DNA of 64,000 nucleotides. It comes from an uncultured Eubacteriales bacterium (GTDB taxonomy: Bacteria; Bacillota; Clostridia; Oscillospirales; Oscillospiraceae). Location of the stretch: the NCBI GenBank assembly GCA_900546415.1, contig URCY01000002.1:605-64604 (forward strand), in the 5' to 3' direction. The position numbers and the translations under genes are program-made. Below the pieces are notes generated by a model. That model searched no databases, had not been told where the DNA came from, and worked only from the letters and a program-made list of their open reading frames with translations. Each line of letters begins with the position of its first letter. The first letter of the stretch is position 1. Positions 1,491-16,121 of this stretch are shown here, in pieces.

Positions 1491-2225
1491 ATGGCGGTCA
1501 TCGAGCTGGTACATCTGGAAAAGCGCTTCGGCGCGCACGAGGTTTTGCGCGGCGTGGATCTGAGCGTGGAGCAGGGCGAGGTCCTGAGCGTGATCGGCGC
1601 GTCCGGCTCAGGCAAGAGCACGATGCTGCGCTGCATCAATCTGCTCGAGACGCCGACGGCCGGACAGGTGCGCTATCGCGGACAGGCCGTGACGGAGCGG
1701 ACGGTGAACCTGCCGCAGTACCGCGCAAGGGTCGGCATGGTCTTCCAGAGCTTCAATCTGTTTCACAACATGACGGCGCTGGAGAATTGCATCGTCGGAC
1801 AGACGAGCGTGCTCGGACGCAAGCGCCCGGAGGCGCGCGAAAACGCGATGCGTTATCTCGAGCAGGTCGGCATGACGCCCTATATCCATGCGAAGCCCGC
1901 GCAGCTCTCGGGCGGGCAGAAGCAGCGCGTGGCCATTGCGCGTGCGCTGGCCATGGAGCCGGAGGTGCTGCTGTTTGACGAGCCGACCAGCGCGCTCGAC
2001 CCGCAGATGGTCGGCGAGGTGCTTTCGGTCATGCGTGAGCTGGCGTCGCAGGGGCTGACAATGATCGTGGTGACGCATGAAATGGCGTTCGCGCGGGACG
2101 TTTCGACGCGCGTGGCCTTCATGGCCGACGGCACGATCTGCGAGAGCGGCACGCCGGAGCAGATCTTCCAGAACCCGAGGCAGGAAAAAACACGGGAGTT
2201 CCTTGCACGCTTCCGCAGCACATAG
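1491..2225 (+). CDS. Amino-acid ABC transporter ATP-binding protein (GlnQ-like)
   Basis: Walker [10 protein letters not shown], signature [15 protein letters not shown], Walker [12 protein letters not shown]. Confidence 0.9.
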
Positions 2226-2231
2226 GCACAG

Positions 2232-2264
2232 ACGGGAGGATCGAAAGGATTCTCCCGTTTTCGG
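2232..2264 (+). terminator. Rho-independent terminator after the amino-acid ABC operon
   Basis: Hairpin acgggag...ctcccgt followed by tttcgg. Confidence 0.5.
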
Positions 2265-2324
2265 TGATTGTGACACTTTTTGAGCGCTGCACAAAATTTG
2301 GACACCGCTCGTGCGATTGCCCCT

Positions 2325-2352
2325 TTCAAAATTCGACCGTTTCCGCTATAAT
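2325..2352 (+). promoter_or_regulatory. Sigma-A-type promoter upstream of the hgdB-like gene
   Basis: TTCAAA, 16-nt spacer, TATAAT. Confidence 0.4.
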
Positions 2353-2422
2353 ATCGAGTTATAAGGAAAATTGTTGCTTTTTGAAGGATGTGAAGCCGGT
2401 GACGGTTGATTTTACGAAAGAA

Positions 2423-3658
2423 ATGAAGCGCGATTACACGATCATTGCGCCGGATATTTTCCCGACGCATATGGAGCTGATCTCCGAGGTGTTCCGCCTG
2501 TATGGCTATCGGCTCGTGATCGCAAAGTACGAGGGCAAGGAGGTCATCGACACCGGCCTGAAGTACCTGCACAACGACGTCTGTTACCCTGCGATCTGTA
2601 TGCTCGGGCAGCAGATCTATGCCCTGACCTGCGGCGATTTTGACCCGCACCGCTGCGCGCTGATCCAATTCCAGACCGGCGGCGGCTGCCGCGCGTCGAA
2701 TTATATCTGTCTGCTGCGCAAGGCGCTGGAAAAAATGGACATGGCCTACGTTCCGGTCATTTCGCTGAGCTTCGGCGGGTATGAAAAATACAGCGGCTTT
2801 CATATCACGCCCGGCATGGTCGCCTGCGCAATGCGGTCGCTCGTCTACGGCGATATGCTCCTGCTGCTGAAGAATCAGACGCTGCCCTATGAGCAAAACG
2901 CCGGGGACACGCGCCGCATCGTCGAAAAATGGATCGCGCGGCTGACCGACGATTTCCGTCACAGACGCGGCCTGACCTCGGCGGGCATGAAAAAGCGCCT
3001 GCGCGCGATGGCCAAGGACTTTCACGACATTCCGCGCGAAAAGAAAAAGCTGAAAAAGGTCGGGATCGTCGGGGAGATCTATGTGAAATACTCCTCCTTC
3101 GGCAACAACGGGCTGGAGCGATTCCTGCTCTCGCAGGGCTGCGAATATATGGTTCCGGGCGTGCTGGGCTTTTTCCAGTATTGCTTTGCCAACATCGAGA
3201 CCGATCGCAAATACTACGGCGGCAGCCGCGCGATGCTGCTCGTCGGCAGGACGATGGAGCGCATCGCCGACCGCTGGGAAAGCGCCCTCATCGACGCACT
3301 CAAGCCTTATCCGGACTTTGCCGCGCCGGTCGCCTTTGACCGCGTCAAGGAGCTGGCGGACACGATCATCGACCGGGGCGTTAAAATGGGCGAGGGCTGG
3401 CTGCTGCCCGGCGAGGCTGCCGAGCTGATTGAAAAGGGCTATTCCAATGTGATTTGCGCGCAGCCCTTCGGCTGTCTGCCGAACCACATCGTGGGCAAGG
3501 GGACGATCCGCCGTCTGCGCGAGCGTTACCCGAACGCGAACGTTTTCCCGGTGGACTATGACGCCGGGGCATCGCGCGTGAATCAGGAGAACCGCATCAA
3601 GCTGATGCTTGCAATCGCGGAGGAAGAGGAGGCGGAGCATGAAACGGTTAGGGCTTGA
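2423..3658 (+). CDS. 2-hydroxyacyl-CoA dehydratase D-component-like protein (HgdB/DUF2229-like); start uncertain (alternative GTG at 2399)
   Basis: N-terminus MKRDYTIIAPDIFPTHMELI...CYPA. Homologous to the C-terminal third of the downstream 981-aa protein. Purine-rich ribosome-binding site before ATG 2423. Confidence 0.6.
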   Translation: MKRDYTIIAPDIFPTHMELISEVFRLYGYRLVIAKYEGKEVIDTGLKYLHNDVCYPAICMLGQQIYALTCGDFDPHRCALIQFQTGGGCRASNYICLLRKALEKMDMAYVPVISLSFGGYEKYSGFHITPGMVACAMRSLVYGDMLLLLKNQTLPYEQNAGDTRRIVEKWIARLTDDFRHRRGLTSAGMKKRLRAMAKDFHDIPREKKKLKKVGIVGEIYVKYSSFGNNGLERFLLSQGCEYMVPGVLGFFQYCFANIETDRKYYGGSRAMLLVGRTMERIADRWESALIDALKPYPDFAAPVAFDRVKELADTIIDRGVKMGEGWLLPGEAAELIEKGYSNVICAQPFGCLPNHIVGKGTIRRLRERYPNANVFPVDYDAGASRVNQENRIKLMLAIAEEEEAEHETVRA

Positions 3659-6554
3659 CATCGGCTCGACGACGCTCAAATGCGTCGTTCTGGGCGAGAA
3701 CGACACGATCGAGTATTCCGTATATCGCCGCCATTTCTCGCGCATTCCCGAAACGGCGGCGGAGCTGATCCGTGAGCTGCGCGAAAAATTCCCGAAAGAG
3801 ACGTTCTCCGTGACGATCTCCGGCTCGGCCGGCATGGGCATCGCCGAAAAGGCCGGACTGCCCTTTGTGCAGGAGGTCTATGCCGAAAAGCTTGCCGTGC
3901 AGCGCGCCGCGCCGGACGCCGACGTGGTCATCGAGCTGGGCGGTGAGGATGCGAAGATTCTCTTCCTCTCCGGTGGCTTCGAGATGCGCATGAACGGCAC
4001 CTGCGCCGGGGGTACGGGCGCGTTCATCGACCAGATGGCCGCGCTGCTGCACGTCACGCCGACGGAGCTGAACGATCTGGCCGCCAAGCGCGAGAAGATC
4101 TGCACGATCGCCTCCCGCTGCGGCGTGTTTGCAAAGTCGGATGTGCAGCCGCTGCTCAATCAGGGCGCGCGCCACGAGGACATTGCCGCCGGGATCTTTT
4201 ATGCCGTTGTGAACCAGACCGTCGCCGGTCTGGCGCAGGGCAGAAGGATCACCGGCAGGGTGCTCTATCTGGGCGGGCCGCTGTATTTCCTTCCGGAGCT
4301 GCGCAAAAGCTTCGACGATGTGCTGAAAACCACGGGCACCTGCCCGGAGAACGCGCTTTATTTCGTCGCGCTCGGCGCGGCGCGCTCGGGGACGGGCGCG
4401 GAGCTGACGCTTGAAGCCTTGCAGGCCGCGCTCGAGCTGCGTGCGGATTACACGCAGAGCTGCCACGCGACGCCGCTTTTTGCAAACGGCGCGGAATATG
4501 AGGCCTTTCGGCGGCGGCACGAGGCTGCCTCCGAGGGCATTCGGGAGCTGGATGCGCCGCAGGACGAGATGTTTCTGGGCATCGACGCCGGGTCGACCAC
4601 GGTCAAGCTCGTGCTCTGCGACCGCGCGGGCAACCTGTTTCGCCCGTTTTATGCGCCGAACGCGGGCAACCCCGTGCCGCTCGTGCGCGACTATCTGCAA
4701 AAGCTCTATGCGGCCTATCCGAAGCTGAAGATCGCCGGTTCGGCGGTCACGGGCTACGGCGAGGAGCTGATCCGCAACGCGTTCTCCGTCGACCTCGGCA
4801 TCGTCGAGACGGTCGCGCACTATACGGCTGCGAAAAAATTCCGCCCTGACGTCGATTTCATTCTCGACATCGGCGGGCAGGACATCAAATGCTTCCAGAT
4901 CCGCAACGGCGCGATCGACAACCTCTATCTGAACGAGGCCTGCTCGTCCGGCTGCGGCTCGTTCCTCCAGACCTTCGCCGGGGCGCTGGGCTATACGACG
5001 GCCGAATTTGCGAAGCTCGGCCTTTTTGCCAAGGCGCCCGTGGAGCTTGGCTCGCGCTGCACCGTCTTCATGAACAGCGCCGTCAAGCAGGCGCAGAAGG
5101 ACGGCGCGACGATCGAGGACATCGCCGCCGGACTCTCCGTCAGCGTGGTGAAAAACGCGCTCTACAAGGTCATTCGCTGCGCCAATGCGCGCGAGATCGG
5201 CAAGAACATCGTTGTGCAGGGCGGCACCTTCCTGAACGACTGCGTCCTGCGCGCGTTCGAAATGGAGATCGGCCGCGAGGTCATCCGTCCGAAATTCGCA
5301 CCGCTGATGGGCGCTTACGGCGCGGCGCTCTATGCGCTCGAGCGCTCGACGGGCAAGAGCACGATCCTCGATGCGCAGGGGCTTGCGGATTTTCAGCACA
5401 GCATCCGCGCCATGACCTGCAGCGGCTGCACGAATCACTGCTCCCTGACAGTCAACACCTTCTCGGGCAACCGGCGCTACATCGCGGGCAACCGCTGCTC
5501 GAAGCCCTTGGGCAGAGCCAAGCAGGAGCATCCGCGCGATCTCTATGCCGATAAGCAGCGTCTGCTCTCGGCTTATATGCATGACGAGCCGCGCGCCGAC
5601 CGGCGCACCGTCGGCCTGCCGATGGGGCTGAATTTCTATGAGCTGCTGCCGTTCTGGCACGCGTTCTGGACGAAGCTGGGCTTCAACGTGCTCGTCTCGC
5701 CCTATTCCGACCGCAAGCTCTACCGCATGGGGCAGGACACAATCCCGTCCGACACGGCCTGCTACCCGGCCAAGCTCATGCACGGGCACATCGAATGGCT
5801 GCTCGCGCACGAGCCGGACTTCATTTTCTATCCGGATATGAGCTATAACGTTGAAGAAGGGCTGGGCGTGAACCATTTCAACTGCCCGGTCGTGGCCTAT
5901 TATCCGCAGGTTTTGAAGCTGAATATGCCCGGCTTGCAGGGGAAAACGCCGTTCTTGTGCGATTTTCTGTCGCTTGCGGACGAAAAACAGTTTGAAAAGC
6001 GGATGCGCGCCGTGCTCAAGGCGCATTTTCCGGAGATCGATCGCAAAACGCTGCACGAGGCGGTGCGCGCCGCCTATGCCGAGCAGGAGACGTATCGCCA
6101 AACGGTGCGCGACATTGCCGCCGAATATCTCTGCGAGGCTGAGCGCGAAAACAAGCCCGTGATCGTGCTGGCCGGCCGGCCGTACCACGCCGACCCCGAG
6201 ATCAACCACGGCATCGACAAACTGCTGACGTCACTGGGTGCGGTCGTTATCACGGAGGACAGCATCAGCGACCGCACGCAGCCGTTTGAGACGCAGGTGC
6301 GCAATCAGTGGACGTATCACGCGCGGCTGTATGCGGCGGCGAAATACATCGCACAGAGCAAAAAGAAGCTGTTTTTGGTGCAGCTCGTCTCCTTCGGCTG
6401 CGGCGTCGACGCGATCACGACCGACGAGGTGCGGTCGATCCTCGAGGCCGCGGACAGCCCCTATACGCAGATCAAAATTGACGAAATTTCCAACATGGGC
6501 GCCGTGACGATTCGTCTGCGCAGCCTGTTTGCGGTGATTTCCGACAAAAAGTGA
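3639..6554 (+). CDS. CoA-substrate-specific enzyme activase-type protein: two BadF/BadG/BcrA/BcrD-type ATPase domains fused to an HgdB/DUF2229-like domain
   Basis: Two repeats of the ASKHA ATPase N-motif (LGLDIGSTTLKCVVL and LGIDAGSTTVKLVLC). C-terminal region with GLNFYELLPFWHAFW...CYPAK. GGAGG ribosome-binding site before ATG 3639, which overlaps the upstream gene. Confidence 0.75.
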   Translation: MKRLGLDIGSTTLKCVVLGENDTIEYSVYRRHFSRIPETAAELIRELREKFPKETFSVTISGSAGMGIAEKAGLPFVQEVYAEKLAVQRAAPDADVVIELGGEDAKILFLSGGFEMRMNGTCAGGTGAFIDQMAALLHVTPTELNDLAAKREKICTIASRCGVFAKSDVQPLLNQGARHEDIAAGIFYAVVNQTVAGLAQGRRITGRVLYLGGPLYFLPELRKSFDDVLKTTGTCPENALYFVALGAARSGTGAELTLEALQAALELRADYTQSCHATPLFANGAEYEAFRRRHEAASEGIRELDAPQDEMFLGIDAGSTTVKLVLCDRAGNLFRPFYAPNAGNPVPLVRDYLQKLYAAYPKLKIAGSAVTGYGEELIRNAFSVDLGIVETVAHYTAAKKFRPDVDFILDIGGQDIKCFQIRNGAIDNLYLNEACSSGCGSFLQTFAGALGYTTAEFAKLGLFAKAPVELGSRCTVFMNSAVKQAQKDGATIEDIAAGLSVSVVKNALYKVIRCANAREIGKNIVVQGGTFLNDCVLRAFEMEIGREVIRPKFAPLMGAYGAALYALERSTGKSTILDAQGLADFQHSIRAMTCSGCTNHCSLTVNTFSGNRRYIAGNRCSKPLGRAKQEHPRDLYADKQRLLSAYMHDEPRADRRTVGLPMGLNFYELLPFWHAFWTKLGFNVLVSPYSDRKLYRMGQDTIPSDTACYPAKLMHGHIEWLLAHEPDFIFYPDMSYNVEEGLGVNHFNCPVVAYYPQVLKLNMPGLQGKTPFLCDFLSLADEKQFEKRMRAVLKAHFPEIDRKTLHEAVRAAYAEQETYRQTVRDIAAEYLCEAERENKPVIVLAGRPYHADPEINHGIDKLLTSLGAVVITEDSISDRTQPFETQVRNQWTYHARLYAAAKYIAQSKKKLFLVQLVSFGCGVDAITTDEVRSILEAADSPYTQIKIDEISNMGAVTIRLRSLFAVISDKK

Positions 6555-6563
6555 GGGATGGAT

Positions 6564-7259
6564 ATGAAAATTCTTGCGGTTTTGCTTGCGATCGTCGTGC
6601 CCTATCTCGTCGGCGGGATCAATCCGGCGATCGTGCTCTCCAATCTGATCTATCACCGCGATATTCGGCAGTGCGGCAGCAAAAATCCGGGCTTCACGAA
6701 CTTTAAACGCGTGTTTGGCGGGAAAATCGCGTGGCTGGTCTTCGTGCTCGACATCGCGAAATCGGTCGCGGTCTGCCTGCTCGGCGGGTGGCTCTTCGGC
6801 CGCGCCTTCGGGCAGCATCAGCTCGGCGTCGCCTTTGCGGGTCTGTTCGTGATGCTGGGGCACTGCTTCCCGGCGTGGTACGGCTTCCGCGGCGGCAAGG
6901 CGTTTCTTGCCGGGGCGGGCGCGATCTGGTGCATCGACTGGCGCGCCGGGCTGGTTGCCATGTGCGTGCTGATGCTTGTTCTGTTCTCGCTGCATTATAT
7001 GTCGCTGGCGTCCGTCTGCGCCGGGCTTTCCTGCCCGGTCACGCTGGCGATCGTCGGCGTGCAGACGCCGTGGGTGCTGGCGCTGTGTGTGCTGTCCGTG
7101 GCGCTGATGGTCTGGCGGCATAAGGCGAACCTTCTGCGCCTGAAGAACGGAACGGAATCGAGGTTCTATTTCGGGCATAAGGAGGAGACTGCGTCTGGGG
7201 ACGAGACGATGGCCGAGGCGGAGCGTTCCGGAAAAATGGAGCGTGAGCACATTGCTTAA
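6564..7259 (+). CDS. plsY: Glycerol-3-phosphate acyltransferase PlsY (acyl-phosphate:G3P acyltransferase) with a ~35-aa C-terminal extension
   Basis: GSKNPGFTN signature, multi-TM. GAGGG ribosome-binding site 6 nt before ATG 6564. Confidence 0.85.
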   Translation: MKILAVLLAIVVPYLVGGINPAIVLSNLIYHRDIRQCGSKNPGFTNFKRVFGGKIAWLVFVLDIAKSVAVCLLGGWLFGRAFGQHQLGVAFAGLFVMLGHCFPAWYGFRGGKAFLAGAGAIWCIDWRAGLVAMCVLMLVLFSLHYMSLASVCAGLSCPVTLAIVGVQTPWVLALCVLSVALMVWRHKANLLRLKNGTESRFYFGHKEETASGDETMAEAERSGKMEREHIA

Positions 7260-8022
7260 ACAAGATAAGCCGTGCGGCTTTGAAGCGGCGTTCGCCGCGT
7301 GGAACAGGCAGGCGCTGCGGCCGCATGTTTTGCTGGATGCGTCAACAAACGGCACAATGCGCACGCGCTTCGGCGGGGCATCGTTGGGAAAAGCGCCGCT
7401 CGACACGAGCGGCAGGCCGATGCGGATGCTCTGCGCGGTGGATTTTTCGGAGCTTCCGATGCTGCCGGATTTTCCGCAGACGGGACTTCTGCGCATTTAT
7501 GTAAAGGACGATGCACTCTTCGGCATGGACTACGACGAGCCGACCGCGCAGAGAGACTTCCGCGTGCTCTACGATGCGGACGGGAGCGGCCTGATGCCGC
7601 AGGAGGAGCCGGGGGAGAGCGACTATTTCCCGATCCCGCTGTGCTGCCCGTGCCGCGCCGCGACGCTCGAGCAGCAGCCGATCCCCTACGGGAATTACCG
7701 CTTTGACGAGCCGTTTTCTGCCCTGCTGCGCCGCCACGGTGTTGCGGACATCGACGGGGAGATGGAGTGCCGCCTCACGCACGCGCGGGAGCTTCAGCTG
7801 CCCGCGATCGGCGGCTATGCGTGGTTCACGCAGGACGACCCGCGCACATTTGAAAAAAAGTGGCAGCGTTATGACACGCTGCTCCTGCAAATTCCGTACC
7901 GGGATGAGCCGGACGCCATGTTCCGCATCGGCGACGGCGGTGTGATCAATTTTTTGATCCCGCATGAAAAGCTGAAAAAACGCGATTTTTCCGACGTCCT
8001 TTTCTGGTGGGACTGCTATTAA
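7243..8022 (+). CDS. DUF1963 (YwqG-like) domain protein; start uncertain
   Basis: C-terminal FRIGDGGVINFLIP motif typical of DUF1963. ORF overlaps the plsY stop; no strong ribosome-binding site. Confidence 0.5.
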   Translation: MSTLLKQDKPCGFEAAFAAWNRQALRPHVLLDASTNGTMRTRFGGASLGKAPLDTSGRPMRMLCAVDFSELPMLPDFPQTGLLRIYVKDDALFGMDYDEPTAQRDFRVLYDADGSGLMPQEEPGESDYFPIPLCCPCRAATLEQQPIPYGNYRFDEPFSALLRRHGVADIDGEMECRLTHARELQLPAIGGYAWFTQDDPRTFEKKWQRYDTLLLQIPYRDEPDAMFRIGDGGVINFLIPHEKLKKRDFSDVLFWWDCY

Positions 8023-8028
8023 AAAACA

Positions 8029-8068
8029 TCAGGCGGCGTGGTCAAAGCACCACGCCGCCTGTCGTTTT
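8029..8068 (+). terminator. Rho-independent terminator
   Basis: caggcggcgtgg...ccacgccgcctg stem followed by a T-run. Confidence 0.6.
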
Positions 8069-8124
8069 GGAGAATATAAGCATCGCCGCGCTGCAAAAAG
8101 CCGGCGCGGCGATGGGTTCATAAG

Positions 8125-8826
8125 TTATTTGTTTTCGTATTCCGCTGCTGCGGCGTCGGCACGCTGGCAGAACAGGCGCACCTTGTCGATGTCCTTTTCC
8201 ATCACGCCGTCGCTGTATTTATAGCTGGTCTTGGTGAGAGAATCGACGCCGTAGGGGTGAATCTGACGGATGCACTCCTCAACATTATCCGGCCCGAGGC
8301 CGCCCGCGACGATCACGGGGATGTTGACGGAGCGGACGATCTCGGCGTCAATGCTCCAGTCGTGCGTCATGCCGCTGGCGCCGATGCCAGTGTCGGCGGC
8401 GAGGCCGGAGTCGGTGAGCAGGAAGTCGCAGAAGGTAGCGTAGTGCTTGGCGCGGTCAACGGCGGCAGGACCGTCCACCAGAACCGCCTGCATCAGCTTC
8501 ACGCCCGGGCACTCCTTGTGCAGGCGCTCGGCAAAGGCCTCGTCGGCGGTGTAGTCCATACCCGCGATGTGCAGGATGTCGGGCTTCACGCGCTTGGCAA
8601 GGAAGATCATCTCTTCCACATCTTTATTCAGCATGATGGCAACGCATTTCACGCCTCTGCGCCTGGCCTCGGCGAAGATCCGATCCACCACGTCCAGCGG
8701 AACACGGTGGGCGGGCACGCCGCCGCTCTGCATGGGAACCAGACCGATGTGGTCGGCGCCGGCATCCATGGTGGCCACGCTCTCGTTGTAATTCACCAGA
8801 GAATAGATTTGTTTGATCATTGTCAA
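8125..8826 (-). CDS. Phosphoribosylanthranilate isomerase (TrpF)-like TIM-barrel protein; no other trp genes nearby
   Basis: AGADHIGLV, DFLLTDS, GASGMTHDWS and PVIVAGGLGPDNV...PYGVD motifs parallel the PRAI motifs AGAD..GFVF, DxxLLDS, GGTGxxFDW and ILAGGL..A..PxxVD. Confidence 0.65.
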   Translation of the reverse strand: MTMIKQIYSLVNYNESVATMDAGADHIGLVPMQSGGVPAHRVPLDVVDRIFAEARRRGVKCVAIMLNKDVEEMIFLAKRVKPDILHIAGMDYTADEAFAERLHKECPGVKLMQAVLVDGPAAVDRAKHYATFCDFLLTDSGLAADTGIGASGMTHDWSIDAEIVRSVNIPVIVAGGLGPDNVEECIRQIHPYGVDSLTKTSYKYSDGVMEKDIDKVRLFCQRADAAAAEYENK

Positions 8827-8854
8827 TCACAGTCCTTTCGTTGCTTTCGGAAAA

Positions 8855-9769
8855 TCAAATCAGCGCTTCCTCGCAAAGCAGGGGAGACACCGTTTTGGAC
8901 GTTTGCAGGGTCAGGCTCGCGGCCTTCTGCGTCATTTCGCCGATGCGGCGCATGGAGAGGGTCTTGCCGAAGCGGCATCTTGCCCAGCAGATCACGGCCA
9001 TGCTGCAATCGCCCGCGCCGTTGACGCTGACGATCTCGGTCTTGACGATCGGCACCAGAGCGCTTTCGTCTTTGTTGCAGCAGAAGATGCCGTCCTTGCC
9101 CATGGAGATGAACACATTCTGAATGCCGAGGCCGAGCAGCTTGTCCGCTGCCTTTTTCGCGGAGGCCTCGTCGGTGATCTCAATGCCGGTGAGCAGCTGC
9201 GCCTCCAAGGCGTTGGGCTTGAAGCCCTCCAGACGGGGCAGAAGCGGCTTCAGGCGCGGCAGCTTGATCGTGGAGACCGGGTCGGCGTACATCGGAACGG
9301 TGCAGTTCTCGGCCAGCCATTGAATGCTTGCCTCACAGATGTTCGCGTCGACGACGCAAAGCGCCGCACCGTTGATGAGCGCCTTGCGCTCCTCCAGAAA
9401 TTCCGGCGTGACGCAATCGATCAGCGCCATGGCGTTGATGGCGGACATCATTTCGCCGGTGCTGTCGGTGATATAGAGGTAGGTGCAGCTCTTGCCGCCG
9501 GGAACCTTCTGCGCATAGTGCAGACCAATGCCGTCCTTTTCGCACTCCTCTTCGAGGATGCGGCCGAAATGATCGTCGCCGAAAGCCGTGACCAGCTCGA
9601 CGGGGACGCCCAGCTTGGCGATGTTCTGCGCGATGTTATGGCCGACGCCGCCGGCAGACAGCGCAACTGTGCCGATGTTAGAGTCCTTTTCGCGGTAAAC
9701 ATGACCGCAAAGACCGGCAATATCCAGATTCAGGCCGCCGACGACGACCACATAGGGTTGTTTTTCCAT
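8855..9769 (-). CDS. psuK: Pseudouridine kinase-like PfkB-family sugar kinase
   Basis: YVVVVGGLNLDIAG, AGGVGHNIAQNIAKLG, TGEMMSAINAM and NGAGDCSMA closely parallel E. coli YeiC/PsuK motifs. AAGGAGG ribosome-binding site before ATG at complement 9769. Confidence 0.7.
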   Translation of the reverse strand: MEKQPYVVVVGGLNLDIAGLCGHVYREKDSNIGTVALSAGGVGHNIAQNIAKLGVPVELVTAFGDDHFGRILEEECEKDGIGLHYAQKVPGGKSCTYLYITDSTGEMMSAINAMALIDCVTPEFLEERKALINGAALCVVDANICEASIQWLAENCTVPMYADPVSTIKLPRLKPLLPRLEGFKPNALEAQLLTGIEITDEASAKKAADKLLGLGIQNVFISMGKDGIFCCNKDESALVPIVKTEIVSVNGAGDCSMAVICWARCRFGKTLSMRRIGEMTQKAASLTLQTSKTVSPLLCEEALI

Positions 9770-9894
9770 GGGAAAGCCTCCTTGCTGCGACGCGGACAAG
9801 ACGATCCGCCGCTGTTCTTGTGCTACGGACATATTATACCATTCCTTCGACGGAAAAACAAGATTTTTTCTTCTGCATGAACGCAGAAAATGGA

Positions 9895-9923
9895 TTGCAA
9901 ACCGTGTCGAAGTGTATTATAAT
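9895..9923 (+). promoter_or_regulatory. Sigma-A promoter of the Fe-dependent alcohol dehydrogenase gene
   Basis: TTGCAA, 17-nt spacer, TATAAT. Confidence 0.6.
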
Positions 9924-9965
9924 AGCGATGTGAAGGAACTCACAACGAATTTCAGGAGGTTCATT

Positions 9966-11105
9966 ATGCAGTTTAAATTGGAACAAAAGGTTCAGGTTGC
10001 CGTGACCTACGATCTTGCGGGCAGCATTGCGGAGATCCTCTCTGCGCGCGGCTGGCATAAGCCCATGGTGCTTTGCAGCGGCTTCCAGCTCAAGCAGGAG
10101 CCGATCGCGAAGATGGTCGACAGCCTGACCGATTGCACGGTATTTGACGACCTCGTTTCGGATCCCCCCGCGCATTTTATCAACCATGTTGCCGAGCTTT
10201 TCACCGAAAACGGCTGCGATTGCCTGATCGCCATCGGCGGCGGCAGCGCGATCGACACGGCGCGCGGCGTGAACATCGTTCGCACGCTCGGCGGTAAGAT
10301 CGAGGATTATGTCTCGAAGAAAGAGGTTTCGACCTATTGCCACGGTCTGATCGCCGTTCCGACCACGTCCGGCACGGGCAGCGAGCTGTCCAATGCACTG
10401 GTCGTCAGCGACGACGAGACGCACGCCAAGCTGGCGGTGCTGTCGAACAACGCCGTGAGTGAATATGCCCTGCTGTGCCCGCCGCTGGCTGCGTCTCTGC
10501 CCGCGCAGATGACCGCCGCATGCGGCATGGATGCCTTTGCGCACGCTGCCGAGGCTTATACCTCCGGAATTTCCTCGCCGGTCACGGACTGCATCTGCGA
10601 GAAGGTCATGTATCTGCTTGCAAAGTATCTGCCGCAGGCCGTTGCAAACGGCTATGACCTCGAGGCGCGCGAGCGCGTGATGATCGCCGCTTGCCTCGCC
10701 GGCTGGATGCTCAACAATGCGGGCACGCATCTTGGCCATTCGCAGGCGCATATCCTCGGCGCGAAGTTCCGCATTCCGCATGGCTCGGCCTGCGCCTATG
10801 CGCTGCCCGGCACGATGCTTTACACGGCCGAGACCAACGTCAAGAAGGTCAAGGAGATCGGCCTGATTCTGGGCGCGGAGTTCCCCGCAGACCCGACCGA
10901 CCTCGAGGTCGGCCGCATCACCGCCGATCGCATCCGCTATTTCCGCGACACCGTGCTCGGCCTGAAGCCGTGGAGCGAATACGGCATCTCGAAGGAGCAG
11001 GTGCTCGATTGTGCCGCCGAGGTCGCGAAGGAGCGCTTCGCCGGTAACTATCCGCAGCCGGTCACGGAGGAGCTGTGCCGCCGGATGCTGGAGCAGTGGG
11101 GCTGA
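9966..11105 (+). CDS. Iron-containing (group III) alcohol dehydrogenase
   Basis: GGGSAIDTARG motif and metal-binding His region; 380 aa. AGGAGG ribosome-binding site before ATG 9966. Confidence 0.8.
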   Translation: MQFKLEQKVQVAVTYDLAGSIAEILSARGWHKPMVLCSGFQLKQEPIAKMVDSLTDCTVFDDLVSDPPAHFINHVAELFTENGCDCLIAIGGGSAIDTARGVNIVRTLGGKIEDYVSKKEVSTYCHGLIAVPTTSGTGSELSNALVVSDDETHAKLAVLSNNAVSEYALLCPPLAASLPAQMTAACGMDAFAHAAEAYTSGISSPVTDCICEKVMYLLAKYLPQAVANGYDLEARERVMIAACLAGWMLNNAGTHLGHSQAHILGAKFRIPHGSACAYALPGTMLYTAETNVKKVKEIGLILGAEFPADPTDLEVGRITADRIRYFRDTVLGLKPWSEYGISKEQVLDCAAEVAKERFAGNYPQPVTEELCRRMLEQWG

Positions 11106-11228: not shown

Positions 11229-14200
11229 TTACTTGGTGAAGCTTTCCGCGAAACGCATCAGAAGCGTCGCGACCTGCGCGCGAGTGGCGTTGCCCTCCGG
11301 GTCAAGCACGACGCCCGCGCCGTTGTCGGTGCCCTTGATGAGCTTGGCGGAGACGGCCCAAGCCATTGCGTCCTCGGCGTATGCCTTGACGGAGCCCGCA
11401 TCGGAGAAGCTTGCCAGATCGGCGCGGCCGGAGACGTCATAGCCCCTCTGCCCGGCATAGCGGAACAGAATGGCCGTGAGCTGCTCGCGGGTGACGTCGG
11501 CATCCGGCTCGAAGGTCGTTGCGCTCGTGCCGCGCACGATGTCGTGCTCATAGGCCCATGCGAGCGCGTCGCGGTAATAGCCCTTTGCATCGATGTCGGT
11601 GAAGGGGACAGCCGCGGAGGAGGCAGGCTCACATGCCAGACGCCACAGCACGGTGACGAGCATTGCGCGGTTCATCGCGGTTTCCGGCTCGAAGGTAGTC
11701 TCACTCGTGCCGCGGAACAGGTCGTGTGTCACGGCAAAGTCGATGCCTTCATGCGCCCAGTTGCCAACGGCGGGCATATCGGTGAACCTTGCGCCCGGAC
11801 AGTTGGCGGGGATGACCTCGCCCTGACCGATCACGACGCCGCAGACGGTGCAGACGAGATCGCCGGTGTAGCCGTTCTCGGTGCAGGTGGCGGGCTTTGC
11901 ATTCACAACCTCGGTGGTCGGATGCGTGCAGGCGGCAGCATGGATCACGGTGACGCTTGCAACCTTGCTGACAAGGCGCTTGCCGGCGGCGCTTTTCGCG
12001 TCGAACTGCTCCTGACTGACGCCGTAGGCGAAGCGGATGCTGCCGGTGTTCTTCGCAGTGGCGGCTACCTCCTCAAGCGCGCCCTTGCCGGTGCTCCAGC
12101 TCAGAGCAAGCGCGGCGGGAACCTCGGTCTTTCCGGCGTCGGTGATGTAGTACCGATTCGTCATGCTTTCGGCGTAGGTCAGCCTGCTGCTGAAGCCGTC
12201 GGCCGCTGCGGCCTGAAGCGTGTCGTTCTCGGAGAAGGTCAGACCGGCGTCGGTGAGCAGGCTGTCGATCGTGACATATTCGGTCGCGGCAAGAATGGTC
12301 TCTTCGCCGCCCTTCCAATACTGATAGCCGACGGTGCCGGTGGTCTTGAGCGCGGCCAGCTCGGAGGGCCTATAGGTCTTGACGACCTTGGCCTCGCCGC
12401 CCTCGGTCTGCTCATAGACGGTCAGGACGGCGCGCTCCGGATGCGTGACGGTCAGGGTCGCGACCTTGCTGGCAATGCGCTTGCCGGAGACGTTCTGGCT
12501 GTCATACTGTTCCTGCGTGATGCCATAGGCAAAGCGGAGATTGCCGGAGATGTAAGCGCCCTTGACGATGTCCTCGGGCGTGCCCGTGCCGGAGTTCCAA
12601 GAGATCAGGATCGCTGCGGGAACCTCCACGGCGCCCGTCTCGTTGATGTAATACTTCTTGGTCTTGCTGTCCTCATAGGTGAGGGTGGAGGTGAAATCGG
12701 CCTCTGCCGTGGAGGCGGTGACGGAATCGCCGGTGCCGAAGTCGATCCCGGCGTCAGCCAGCAGGCTGTCGATGGAGGTATAGAGGTTGGAGGCAACCGT
12801 GCCCTCGACCTTTGTCTGATGGTTCCAATATTGATAGCCGACGGTCTTGTTTTCGGCCAGCGCCTTCAGGTCGGACATGGTGTAGGTCTTGACGGTTGCA
12901 GCCGCCTCACCCTCGTACTGCTCCAGAACGGTCAGAACGACCGGCTCGGCGGGCTTTTCGTTGCCGTAGCGGAAGGTCGGAGTTGCACCGGCGCAGAGGT
13001 AGGCGATCGTGTAGCCGTCCTCGGTGATGGTCGCGCCGCCGCCGCCGCAGCCGCCGGATTCACCGGCCTGCGTCAGCCAGACCTTATAGACCGGATAGCC
13101 GGTGCTGTCGGCATCCTGTGCCTCGTACTTGGCAAACAGCTCTTTGTCGTTGAGGTCATAGGCAAAGACGTCGAACGGACTGCGCTGGAAGCGCTCCTCG
13201 GCCACGGCGCAGTCCACGACGAGCGCAGCGTTGGTGTCATAGAGGCAGACCGGAGCGGTCGCGGCGATGTTCTTGCCGAGATAGACATAGGTCAGCGCCT
13301 GGCAGGATTCAAACGTGCTTGCGGGAAGCTCCGTGATCTGAACCTCGTCCGGGAAGATGACCTTGGTCAGATTGCTCCAGTCCTGATAGAACACGCCGGT
13401 TCCCATTTCTTTCAGGCCCTTCGGCATGGTGACCTCACTCAGACCGACACAGAGACCGAAAGCTGCATTGCCGATGGACTCAATGCTGTCAACCAGCGTC
13501 AGATCGGTCAGAGCGCCGTCATAGAAGAACATATAGTCGCCGATTTTTTTGCAGCCGTCTGCAAAGGTGACCTTGGCGAGATTCGCGTTGTTGCAGAATG
13601 CGCCCGTGCCGATGGCCGACAGGGTTGCAGGGACGGTAAGTTCGGTCAGGTTATCGCAATAATAGAATGCGTAGCTTCCAATCGTCTCGACCTGATTCAG
13701 ATCCACGGACGGGAGACCGGTATGGCCGAAGCAGGAGCTTCCAACGGTTTTCAGAGAGGCGGGGAAAACAATCGCGCCGAGGTTTTCGCAGCTCCAGAAC
13801 ATATAGTCACTGAGCGCTTCCACGCCCTCGGAGATCGTGACAGAGGTCAGCTTCTTGCAGATGTCAAAGGCGCTGCTCCCAAAGGTGACGTTTGCGGGAA
13901 GCGTGACAGAGGTCAGATTGCTCTGACGGAATGCGAGACTGTCGATCCGCTTGAGCGTAGAGGGGAAGGAAACAGTGGAAAGCACACTCTTGCCGAGATA
14001 GGTCTGCATGAAGGCCTGCGAGGCAATGATTTCGACGCCTTCGGGAATGTCATAGTGCGTTTCAGGGCGTGCGCTCGGATAACGGATCAGCTTCTTGCCG
14101 TCCTTGGTGAACAGGACGCCGTCCACATCCTTGAAATTCGGATTCTCCGCATCGACATAGATGTATTGCAGAGCATCACAGCCGGCAAAAACGTTTTCGG

Positions 14201-16121
14201 TATAGGTGACAACCTGTGTATTTTCGCCCTCGCCGACGCTGGTCTGGACGTCCTTGCCCATTTTCTCAAGCGTGGCGGGGAGCTTGACAGCTTCGACCTT
14301 TTTGCAGCCGCTGAATGCATCAGAACCGATGGTTTGCAGCTTGGTATCAGAGAGATCAAGCTCCGTCACGCTGCGAAGACCCCAGCAGCCCATGGCAGAG
14401 ATGTATTCGAGCGAATCGGGGAAGGAAACGGCGGAGAAGTAGTAGTCGGACGACGAGCCGGTCATCTGATAGGAATAGATCGCGCTCGCGCCGATGCCGG
14501 TGACGGCAAAGGTCCATGTGCGGCCGACGACCTTGGCGGTGACGGACTCGGGAATGACAAGCGTCTGGGAAGCATCATTATAGCCGACGTATTTCAGCTC
14601 GACCTTGCCGGTCTTGGAGGCGTTGTCGAAGCTCGTGACGTGGAATTCCAGATACTTCGGGTTTTCGGAGGAAGCGGTCGTGCCGTCCACATAGACCTTG
14701 AAGTCCGGAATGGAGGCAACAACAGGCTCTTCGCCCCAAGTCGCAAGCGTGATGTCGCCCTTCTGTTCAACAGGGGCTGCGAGCATATCGCTCCATGTCT
14801 CCTGATAATCCTCGAGGCTCACGGCCGGAACATAGATCGTCAGACTGGAGCAGCCGTAGAAGGGATAGCGCGTGCTGTTGTAGACAGAGTAGGGGACAAC
14901 GCCGGGAGCGGATTCGCCCCGGAACGTCACGGAGGTCAGCCCCGTGCAGTTGCTGAACGCGATCGCGCCAACGGTATTGATCGTTTCGGGAAGTACGATC
15001 GCCGCAAGAGCGGTATCATCGGCAAACATCGAGCTTGAAAGTGCTTCCTGCTTAGCCGGGAGCGTGACCGCCGTCAGGTTGGGGTTTGCACCGAGGGCGG
15101 CAATCCCGAAGGTAACATTTTCGGCCTCAAAGACGATCTCCTTGAGCTGCCACGTTCTGGACATGTAACGGCCGACATAATAGAAGCCCTGCTTCTCGAC
15201 GGTCGTGACGGAAGCCGGAACGGTGATCTTCGTGATCTGCGAGACGGCCTCGGAATCGGTCTTGCCGTAGTAGCTGCCGTTGCCGCAGAACGCGCCCTCT
15301 GCAACACCGACGACGTCGTAGGTCTTGCCGTCGACGGTATAGGCGCTCGGGAGGGTGATCTCGCCGCCGAAGCCAAAATAACCGGTGATCCAGGCCTTGC
15401 CCTCGCGCAGCTCGAACTTATAGAACTCCTGCGAGCTGGGATCGACCTTCGCGCCGCAGACGCAAACGCCCTTTTCATAGGTGTGTGCCTCGTTGGTGAC
15501 GGTATAGTCGCAACCGGCATCGGTGCAGACGGCGCTGTGCGTGCCGTCGCCGTTATCCGTGTAGCTCAGGTTATGGCTGGGCGCTTCGGGATAAGCAGGG
15601 TCGGGCAGCTCGTCTGCAATATCGGCTGAGACACTGACCGCACCGTCTGCCGCCGTTTCAAAATCATCGGCATAGAGGCTCTTGCAGTGAATGATCAGCT
15701 CGCTGTCGGAAATCGCCCTGTCAAAAATCGAGTTTGCAAGAGATTCGGCAAAGTTTGCCGGGACGGCACCGTAAAAGTAGACGTTGGTCAGCGAATACAT
15801 ATAATCAAATACGTAATCGCCGTAAGTCGTGACGGTGCTCGGGATCACAAGGCTTTCGACAGCCGTATTCGAAGCGCCGATGCACATGTCATCCAGCTTT
15901 GTGACCGGCGTGCCATTGATTTTGGCGGGGATCACGACGTCAACGGCGCTGCCGAGGTATTCGGTGATGACACCGTTGGAGAATTTGAAGTCCTCTGCCG
16001 GATTCGGCTCCGGAGTCTTGGATGCGGCATCAGCGGCGAAGGCGGGCAGGACAAGCCCTGTCATCATCGACAGACACAGCAGCAGAACCAGCAGCCGACG
16101 AAGGGGTGTTTTCAGGTTCAT
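11229..16121 (-). CDS. Giant S-layer-homology cell-surface protein (1630 aa): signal peptide, BspA-type leucine-rich repeats, two tandem ~150-aa repeat domains, Cys-rich module, three C-terminal SLH domains
   Basis: N-terminal signal peptide MNLKTPLRRLLVLLLCLSMMTGLVLPAFA. LRR_5-like repeats. Repeated LTV(L/Y)EQ(Y/T)EG...FAYG(I/V)(T/S)QEQ(Y/F)D blocks. Three C-terminal F(T/S)D...(W/Y)A...L..G...FEP...TRA/EQ SLH motifs. Confidence 0.85.
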   Translation of the reverse strand: MNLKTPLRRLLVLLLCLSMMTGLVLPAFAADAASKTPEPNPAEDFKFSNGVITEYLGSAVDVVIPAKINGTPVTKLDDMCIGASNTAVESLVIPSTVTTYGDYVFDYMYSLTNVYFYGAVPANFAESLANSIFDRAISDSELIIHCKSLYADDFETAADGAVSVSADIADELPDPAYPEAPSHNLSYTDNGDGTHSAVCTDAGCDYTVTNEAHTYEKGVCVCGAKVDPSSQEFYKFELREGKAWITGYFGFGGEITLPSAYTVDGKTYDVVGVAEGAFCGNGSYYGKTDSEAVSQITKITVPASVTTVEKQGFYYVGRYMSRTWQLKEIVFEAENVTFGIAALGANPNLTAVTLPAKQEALSSSMFADDTALAAIVLPETINTVGAIAFSNCTGLTSVTFRGESAPGVVPYSVYNSTRYPFYGCSSLTIYVPAVSLEDYQETWSDMLAAPVEQKGDITLATWGEEPVVASIPDFKVYVDGTTASSENPKYLEFHVTSFDNASKTGKVELKYVGYNDASQTLVIPESVTAKVVGRTWTFAVTGIGASAIYSYQMTGSSSDYYFSAVSFPDSLEYISAMGCWGLRSVTELDLSDTKLQTIGSDAFSGCKKVEAVKLPATLEKMGKDVQTSVGEGENTQVVTYTENVFAGCDALQYIYVDAENPNFKDVDGVLFTKDGKKLIRYPSARPETHYDIPEGVEIIASQAFMQTYLGKSVLSTVSFPSTLKRIDSLAFRQSNLTSVTLPANVTFGSSAFDICKKLTSVTISEGVEALSDYMFWSCENLGAIVFPASLKTVGSSCFGHTGLPSVDLNQVETIGSYAFYYCDNLTELTVPATLSAIGTGAFCNNANLAKVTFADGCKKIGDYMFFYDGALTDLTLVDSIESIGNAAFGLCVGLSEVTMPKGLKEMGTGVFYQDWSNLTKVIFPDEVQITELPASTFESCQALTYVYLGKNIAATAPVCLYDTNAALVVDCAVAEERFQRSPFDVFAYDLNDKELFAKYEAQDADSTGYPVYKVWLTQAGESGGCGGGGATITEDGYTIAYLCAGATPTFRYGNEKPAEPVVLTVLEQYEGEAAATVKTYTMSDLKALAENKTVGYQYWNHQTKVEGTVASNLYTSIDSLLADAGIDFGTGDSVTASTAEADFTSTLTYEDSKTKKYYINETGAVEVPAAILISWNSGTGTPEDIVKGAYISGNLRFAYGITQEQYDSQNVSGKRIASKVATLTVTHPERAVLTVYEQTEGGEAKVVKTYRPSELAALKTTGTVGYQYWKGGEETILAATEYVTIDSLLTDAGLTFSENDTLQAAAADGFSSRLTYAESMTNRYYITDAGKTEVPAALALSWSTGKGALEEVAATAKNTGSIRFAYGVSQEQFDAKSAAGKRLVSKVASVTVIHAAACTHPTTEVVNAKPATCTENGYTGDLVCTVCGVVIGQGEVIPANCPGARFTDMPAVGNWAHEGIDFAVTHDLFRGTSETTFEPETAMNRAMLVTVLWRLACEPASSAAVPFTDIDAKGYYRDALAWAYEHDIVRGTSATTFEPDADVTREQLTAILFRYAGQRGYDVSGRADLASFSDAGSVKAYAEDAMAWAVSAKLIKGTDNGAGVVLDPEGNATRAQVATLLMRFAESFTK

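Follow-up and report, generated by a model that had tools for sequence, protein, structure and literature searches.

A conserved kinase, barrel and dehydrogenase module as a candidate PsuG-independent route for pseudouridine 5'-phosphate in Firmicutes and bifidobacteria

Pseudouridine is the most abundant modified nucleoside of RNA. In Escherichia coli, genes for its kinase, PsuK, and for the glycosidase PsuG belong to an island with the order yeiI-nupX-rihB-yeiL-psuT-psuG-psuK, in which psuG overlaps psuK. Here we describe a compact two-gene operon, composed of a PsuK-type kinase gene followed by a gene for a (beta/alpha)8 barrel protein with the fold of phosphoribosylanthranilate isomerase (PRAI, TrpF), in 64,000 nucleotides of DNA from an uncultured Eubacteriales bacterium of the Oscillospiraceae (contig URCY01000002.1, positions 605 to 64,604; this whole stretch is called the window, and its own numbering is used below). 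We propose, with confidence that is about even, that this operon forms the centre of a conserved module which processes pseudouridine 5'-phosphate (psi-MP) independently of PsuG. In the full-text literature, PsuK/PsuG was the only route of pseudouridine breakdown found, and nothing was found there on the pairing of kinase and barrel, on the clade to which the barrel belongs or on an alternative route.

Two other systems are relevant for comparison. In TrpF (EC 5.3.1.24), an Asp residue protonates the furanose oxygen and a Cys residue removes the C2' proton, which results in Amadori rearrangement through an iminium ion. Gut bacteria cleave plant C-glycosides by means of an oxidoreductase, DgpA, and a C-C lyase, DgpB/C, in an oxidise-then-cleave sequence.

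Both open reading frames (ORFs) of the operon are real; they lie on the minus strand with 34 nt between them. The kinase gene (8855..9769, minus strand, 304 aa) is the first. Its ATG at 9769, preceded by AGGAGG, is preferred to the start of a longer ORF reaching 9832, which is unlikely to be a real gene, and gene callers likewise report 304 aa on ten contigs of the same species. The second gene (8125..8820, minus strand, 231 aa) encodes the barrel, assigned on the basis of its Pfam PRAI match and predicted fold. The first-pass annotation, made from the sequence without database searches, had placed this gene at 8125-8826; the gene itself was borne out, while its start is more likely the ATG at 8820 than the TTG at 8826, gene callers reporting 231 aa on 10 same-species contigs. 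ORFs, strand, Pfam and fold all agree with the central observation of that annotation, namely that a PsuK-like kinase and a TrpF-like TIM barrel share one minus-strand operon.

The kinase scores 153.7 bits with Pfam PfkB and its closest solved structure is E. coli PsuK (7vkp, 176 bits). Pseudouridine is bound in the E. coli enzyme by N14, D16, G41, V42, N45, Y97, M114, N143, V166, S167 and K170; in addition, Ser30' from the partner subunit faces N1 and is proposed to recognise N1-H, and Asp256 is catalytic (PMC9247573). At all 13 of these 13 contact or catalytic positions, the Asp256 equivalent included, the window kinase is identical to E. coli PsuK, so that the motif-for-motif resemblance to PsuK claimed at first pass is real. 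When kinases of other species encoded directly upstream of the barrel gene were aligned, the whole set of 13 residues was found in 75 of 76, which tells against the earlier suggestion of a kinase with a different substrate. The kinase of one locus (L090) resembles ribokinase in the alignment, yet its best NCBIfam model is pseudouridine kinase, and it is treated here as a divergent or misaligned member. Judged from its sequence, the predicted phosphorylation of pseudouridine by the window kinase is well supported.

To see how far the pairing extends, regions of +/-10 kb around the barrel gene were taken from 80 species (one genome each; Clostridia, Bacilli and Bifidobacterium) and all their ORFs were clustered. 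Linkage was counted in the 60 loci, each from a different species, which have at least 4 kb on both sides of the barrel gene (fully flanked loci). The kinase is paired with the barrel in about 76 of the 80 species and lies directly upstream of it in 59 of the 60 fully flanked loci. Evidently, the co-localisation is not incidental, as the first-pass annotation had allowed it might be. No more than 6 kb separate the barrel from an orthologous Fe-dependent alcohol dehydrogenase (Fe-ADH) in 54 of these loci; a helix-turn-helix (HTH)-PfkB protein of about 365 aa occurs in 49, a nucleoside hydrolase of the IU type in 34 and a NupC-type transporter in 26. In Lactobacillaceae, kinase, barrel and dehydrogenase share an operon with NupC, RihA and the HTH-PfkB protein. 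For Levilactobacillus brevis, the operon order is HTH-PfkB, kinase, barrel, YczE-like membrane protein, Fe-ADH, NupC transporter, small membrane protein and RihA, the last of which passes its equivalog cut-off (517.7 bits against 433). Bifidobacterium loci have an MFS transporter in place of NupC, and one Lachnospiraceae locus adds a uridine kinase and a Bmp/PnrA nucleoside ABC transporter. The company of transporters, RihA and uridine kinase indicates that the context of the module is uptake and salvage of pyrimidine nucleosides. In a Ureibacillus metagenome-assembled genome (MAG; L051), barrel and Fe-ADH remain together and the kinase is absent. In a Candidatus Epulonipiscium MAG (L043:3-1421, on a contig of 2660 bp), kinase and barrel are contained in one ORF with no stop codon between them. 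This may reflect true gene fusion or loss of a stop codon, and it was seen in this MAG alone.

The dehydrogenase is present in the window as well (9966..11105, plus strand, 379 aa), where it is transcribed divergently from the operon. According to the first-pass annotation the barrel was the kinase's only partner. This holds within the operon itself; the divergent Fe-ADH gene nevertheless represents a conserved third member. The protein carries the Pfam domains Fe-ADH and ADH_Fe_C (PF00465, 113 bits; PF25137, 141.9 bits), reaches no NCBIfam equivalog cut-off and, on 9 of 10 contigs of the same species, is likewise predicted by gene callers at 379 aa. Its nucleotide and Asp/His metal-site motifs (IGGGS, G.D.F.HA.E.Y, HS..H and HG) are kept at 95% or more across 68 orthologues. 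Orthologues usually lie directly downstream of the barrel on the same strand, and only in the window's own lineage is the gene divergent.

The HTH-PfkB proteins, which are YeiI-like and absent from the window, keep the nucleoside-binding residues of PsuK (n=57), whereas the residue corresponding to catalytic Asp256 is Ala in 44 of 57, Ser in 11 of 57 and another residue in the remainder; an example is L073:7682-8770 from Levilactobacillus brevis. E. coli YeiI keeps the Asp256 equivalent, and in this the HTH-PfkB proteins of the module loci differ from it. Retention of the binding residues together with loss of the catalytic Asp fits a ligand sensor that regulates the operon. The HTH-PfkB protein is, as far as its residues tell, probably a kinase turned into a nucleoside-sensing transcription factor.

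Compared with the psu island of E. coli, these loci share the PsuK-type kinase with identical substrate-contact residues and, in related species, also NupC-family transporters, a Rih-type pyrimidine nucleoside hydrolase and the YeiI-like HTH-PfkB protein. What differs is the position of PsuG, a glycosidase of the IndA family, which is taken here by the barrel and Fe-ADH. E. coli PsuG gave no tblastn match (E<=1e-3) in the window or in 90 loci (L001-L090). Since PsuG has no match while the remaining parts correspond to those of the E. coli island, it appears that the barrel, probably together with the dehydrogenase, takes over the step that follows the kinase. This is the main argument for our proposal.

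The barrel has the TrpF fold. It scores 51.3 bits with Pfam PRAI (PF00697), whose gathering score is 22.7, and its AlphaFold model (pLDDT 90) finds exclusively TrpF and TrpCF structures among the top 12 Foldseek matches, the best being 1nsj (TM 0.80/0.89, 22% identity). With TrpF it also shares the Asp at strand 6, the GG and GVD(S) phosphate-site motifs and a GxGxxHDW loop. In sequence alignment, the invariant Asp137 lines up with Asp126, the general acid with which strand 6 of Thermotoga maritima TrpF ends; AGGLGPDNV and GVDS, the motifs of the phosphate site, are conserved as well.

In other respects the barrel departs from TrpF. It falls under the cut-off of all 12-13 NCBIfam models of TrpF/TrpCF (best 75.2 bits against 216; cut-offs are at least 172). 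Cys7 of T. maritima TrpF, the general base at the end of strand 1, aligns with Tyr6 of the barrel; this Tyr is invariant in 20 of 20 family members. Strand 1 reads K-Q-I-Y-S where canonical TrpF has K-I-C-G, strand 8 reads DSLTKTS instead of DVSSGVE, and the C-terminus carries an extra hairpin and helix. The barrel also lacks trp context and is far more conserved in sequence. Searches with E. coli TrpA-E gave no tblastn match in the 64 kb window at E<=1e-3, in accordance with the earlier remark that no trp genes lie nearby; around the 90 loci (L001-L090), TrpA, B, C and D likewise gave none, and a single TrpE/PabB-like match was obtained, in L077.

Relatives of the barrel were sought among 1.84 billion representative proteins. 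They form a broad 'xQIY' clade, 35-49% identical to the barrel and separate from the canonical K-I-C-G rows, in which Gln4, Tyr6, Asp81/His84, Asp137, Asp193-Ser194 and Thr198 are common; the column of Tyr6 is Tyr, rarely Phe, in most of the clade. Public databases name the clade 'phosphoribosylanthranilate isomerase', and 434 clusters at 90% identity were matched. The first-pass annotation had considered a moonlighting TrpF paralogue. It was right in that a TrpF relative stands in a nucleoside context and not in tryptophan synthesis, but the protein belongs to a dedicated separate clade, has exchanged its catalytic Cys for Tyr and fails all TrpF equivalog models, none of which suits a moonlighting TrpF.

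Within the clade, the barrel's own subfamily is unusually well conserved (63-93% identity over 80 species; column identity averages 79%) and ranges over Oscillospiraceae, Clostridium, Lachnospiraceae, Enterococcaceae, Aerococcaceae, Streptococcus, Lactobacillaceae and Bifidobacterium. An entirely identical protein (100%) is found in uncultured Clostridiales bacterium UMGS1116, and the next relatives come from MAGs of Faecousia and further Oscillospiraceae. Compared with solved TrpF structures, the barrel is 17-25% identical. For the partner kinases from the genomes that carry the subfamily, identity is no more than 42-57% beyond the window's Oscillospiraceae relatives, and for the dehydrogenase the median is 52%. 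So extreme a degree of conservation is an argument that the barrel's substrate is specific and demanding.

A plasmid of Limosilactobacillus mucosae (NZ_CP058956.1, 43.5 kb; L100) carries at 8001-9829 a truncated, unannotated barrel gene comprising residues 38-227. Fe-ADH is there split into two coding sequences, and TnpB and IS256 genes adjoin. What remains there is a degenerate and mobile copy of the module. Its existence fits the near-identity of barrels across phyla, itself suggestive of horizontal transfer.

More distant members of the xQIY clade occur in various contexts. On a MAG contig of 4204 bp (L098:2-2739), a 42%-identical barrel lies directly 3' of an HTH-PfkB gene and an amidohydrolase gene; the latter is of the methylthioadenosine (MTA)/5'-deoxyadenosine-deaminase type, which provides a second nucleoside context for the clade. 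On a JGI metagenome contig of 2977 bp (L101:11-1183), a distant xQIY barrel, whose N-terminus is truncated by the edge of the contig, carries a Maf-like domain fused to its C-terminus; the fusion was seen on this one contig, where PcrB is a neighbour. Maf pyrophosphatases hydrolyse modified pyrimidine nucleoside triphosphates, pseudo-UTP included, to the monophosphate. Together with the single frame of kinase and barrel in Candidatus Epulonipiscium and the residue pattern of the HTH-PfkB proteins, the Maf fusion hints that the barrel takes over the step after the kinase. On plasmid pT173d of Ensifer canadensis (L099), a 36%-identical member follows a MurR/RpiR regulator (locus 7115-8669), and a divergent operon at 1666-6966 encodes a sugar ABC transporter, a class I/II aminotransferase and a carbohydrate kinase; similar genes are found on plasmids of Sinorhizobium, Shinella and Mesorhizobium. 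Going by these neighbours, the wider xQIY clade may act on phosphorylated sugar amines.

How might the module work? In the first and well supported step, the PfkB kinase would convert pseudouridine into psi-MP. The barrel would then bind psi-MP and open the ribose ring of this C-nucleotide by acid/base chemistry resembling that of TrpF. N1 of pseudouridine is conjugated to C1' via C6=C5, so that ring opening by the same pair of acid and base could proceed by way of a vinylogous iminium ion. The reaction might be a vinylogous isomerisation of the Amadori type, or ring opening followed by retro-aldol cleavage, and would fill the role of PsuG in E. coli. Tautomerisation would give a 2'-keto (1-deoxyribulosyl) product, to be reduced by the dehydrogenase; hydration and retro-aldol cleavage would instead give uracil and ribose 5-phosphate, the same products as those of PsuG. 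Fe-ADH would perform a linked redox step. It might reduce the open-chain carbonyl product, or it might first oxidise a ribose hydroxyl, after which the barrel would break the C-C bond, as is the case with plant C-glycosides.

With DgpA and DgpB/C the proposed system would have in common a nicotinamide-dependent oxidoreductase, a TIM-barrel enzyme, a C-C glycosidic bond and a home in anaerobic gut bacteria. It differs in the families involved (Fe-ADH and the PRAI fold) and in the substrate, which would be a phosphorylated C-nucleotide. We also considered schemes resembling the pentose-bisphosphate pathway, the dihydroxyacetone phosphate shunt and dihydroneopterin aldolase. On reasoning, none of them accounts both for a kinase that retains the residues binding the nucleobase and for the lack of any aldolase or thiamine-dependent enzyme. 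The boldest form of our proposal is that barrel and Fe-ADH constitute a new system, unrelated to PsuG, which opens or cleaves the C-C glycosidic bond of psi-MP, and hence a second catabolic route, widespread in gut and food Firmicutes and bifidobacteria and controlled by a pseudouridine sensor derived from a kinase-dead PsuK paralogue. We offer it as a tentative idea.

Several observations weigh against a PsuG-independent module for psi-MP. The best NCBIfam model of the kinase is PRK09850, pseudouridine kinase, with 194.7 bits, and the cut-off of 540 is not reached, although this model looks tuned to enterobacterial sequences. E. coli YeiI possesses 12 of the 13 PsuK residues, Thr replacing Met114, so that these residues may be typical of a wider clade whose members bind pyrimidine nucleosides. 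Some distant clade members stand in contexts unrelated to nucleosides (RpiR regulator, sugar ABC transporter and aminotransferase on the Ensifer plasmid). About six fully flanked loci, mostly from Clostridium, have kinase and barrel only, with no Fe-ADH nearby, so that Fe-ADH may be accessory to the module. No alternative oxidoreductase was found in these loci, whose neighbours include a CPBP protease, an endonuclease-like protein, AdhE (probably housekeeping) and a uridine kinase. Both the barrel's substrate and the part played by the dehydrogenase are read from gene context and residue conservation only. The main weakness is that we derived no single convincing scheme in which an Amadori-type product and a dehydrogenase release uracil.

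Some of these points would be accommodated if the substrate of the module were another pyrimidine-type nucleoside or ribosyl compound (methylated pseudouridine, dihydrouridine or a ring-opened ureido-riboside, for instance). In that case the barrel would carry out a genuine Amadori rearrangement of a 5'-phosphoribosyl-amine, and the ketose so formed would be reduced by the dehydrogenase. Isomerisation of a glycosylamine would suit a PRAI fold that retains both its acid residue and its phosphate site; the kinase score and the residues of YeiI would be as expected, and so would the distant clade members adjoining a nucleoside-deaminase-like amidohydrolase or an aminotransferase and sugar ABC transporter. 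We nevertheless think such a substrate unlikely, because the residues facing the uracil are all kept (Ser30', N143, S167 and K170 among them) and the part-by-part correspondence with the E. coli psu island speaks for pseudouridine itself. As to the methylated form, E. coli PsuK is reported to show only about 7% activity on N1-methyl-pseudouridine (PMC9247573). A different possibility is that PsuG encoded elsewhere in the genome cleaves psi-MP, barrel and Fe-ADH acting downstream or in parallel, for example as a new aldose-ketose isomerase of ribose 5-phosphate, whose product would then be reduced to a pentitol phosphate. Our scan for psuG was indeed confined to the 64 kb window and to +/-10 kb around each locus; formally speaking, PRAI isomerises an aldose to a ketose within a 5-phosphoribosyl unit; and operons of the module carry RihA, which releases free ribose. 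But central pentose-phosphate enzymes already perform these steps, which leaves the link to the kinase in 59 of 60 loci unexplained; no psuG lies within 10 kb in the 90 loci, whereas psuG overlaps psuK in E. coli; and the conservation of the barrel points to a more demanding substrate. An undetected PsuG with such a downstream branch is accordingly improbable. Finally, the barrel might simply be the organism's TrpF and its adjacency to the kinase incidental, as the database name and the passed Pfam gathering score would have it. This is effectively excluded by the TrpF equivalog models, missed by a factor of about three or more, by replacement of the catalytic Cys with an invariant Tyr and by the lack of tblastn matches to TrpA-D in the window and around the 90 loci (against one TrpE/PabB-like match); the high identity across phyla, set against the low identity to solved TrpF structures, and the kept synteny with the kinase speak in the same sense.

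Returning to the window, whose G+C content is about 60%, the kinase operon and the Fe-ADH gene share an intergenic region of 196 bp (9770..9965), in which a consensus scan detected back-to-back promoter-like sites: TTGTGA-18-TATAAT on the minus strand (9945-9916) and TTGCAA-17-TATAAT on the plus strand (9895-9923), both being consensus matches only. A TGgTATAAT sequence stands just 5' of the start of the long kinase ORF. No Rfam riboswitch or other RNA element was found around the operon, two sub-threshold chance matches aside. The operon is closed by a hairpin resembling a bidirectional intrinsic terminator (8030..8061; 13-bp stem with 10 G-C pairs and T-runs on both strands), located between the stop of the barrel gene (8125) and a convergent DUF1963 gene ending at 8022.

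The neighbouring DUF1963, PlsY and surface-protein genes are treated as incidental, their linkage not being kept in other taxa. The surface protein adjoining Fe-ADH (11229-16121, minus strand) has 1630 aa, with leucine-rich repeats of the BspA type and three SLH domains. In other strains of the species, its position is occupied by proteins of 439 aa (SLH only) or 1463 aa, which marks a strain-variable cell-surface locus. Upstream of plsY lie two overlapping genes (2264-6554, plus strand). The first encodes 464 aa (419 aa as called) with a weak DUF2229 match, the second 981 aa (971 aa as called) with two BcrAD/BadFG ATPase domains and DUF2229; by its domains, the pair resembles an acyl-CoA dehydratase activase.

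Taken as a whole, our analysis suggests that the locus is a pseudouridine-utilisation locus in which the glycosidase step has been replaced by unrelated enzymes. Mammals excrete pseudouridine, and the nucleoside is abundant in host and dietary material. If the proposal is true, it would explain how many lactobacilli, bifidobacteria and clostridia handle pseudouridine, and the well-studied TrpF/HisA barrel fold would gain a new reaction. The name 'phosphoribosylanthranilate isomerase', under which databases list the barrel clade, would then have to be corrected. The enzymes would also be new tools for biocatalysis of C-nucleosides, relevant to the making of pseudouridine for mRNA, and the kinase-dead HTH-PfkB protein would be a candidate pseudouridine biosensor.

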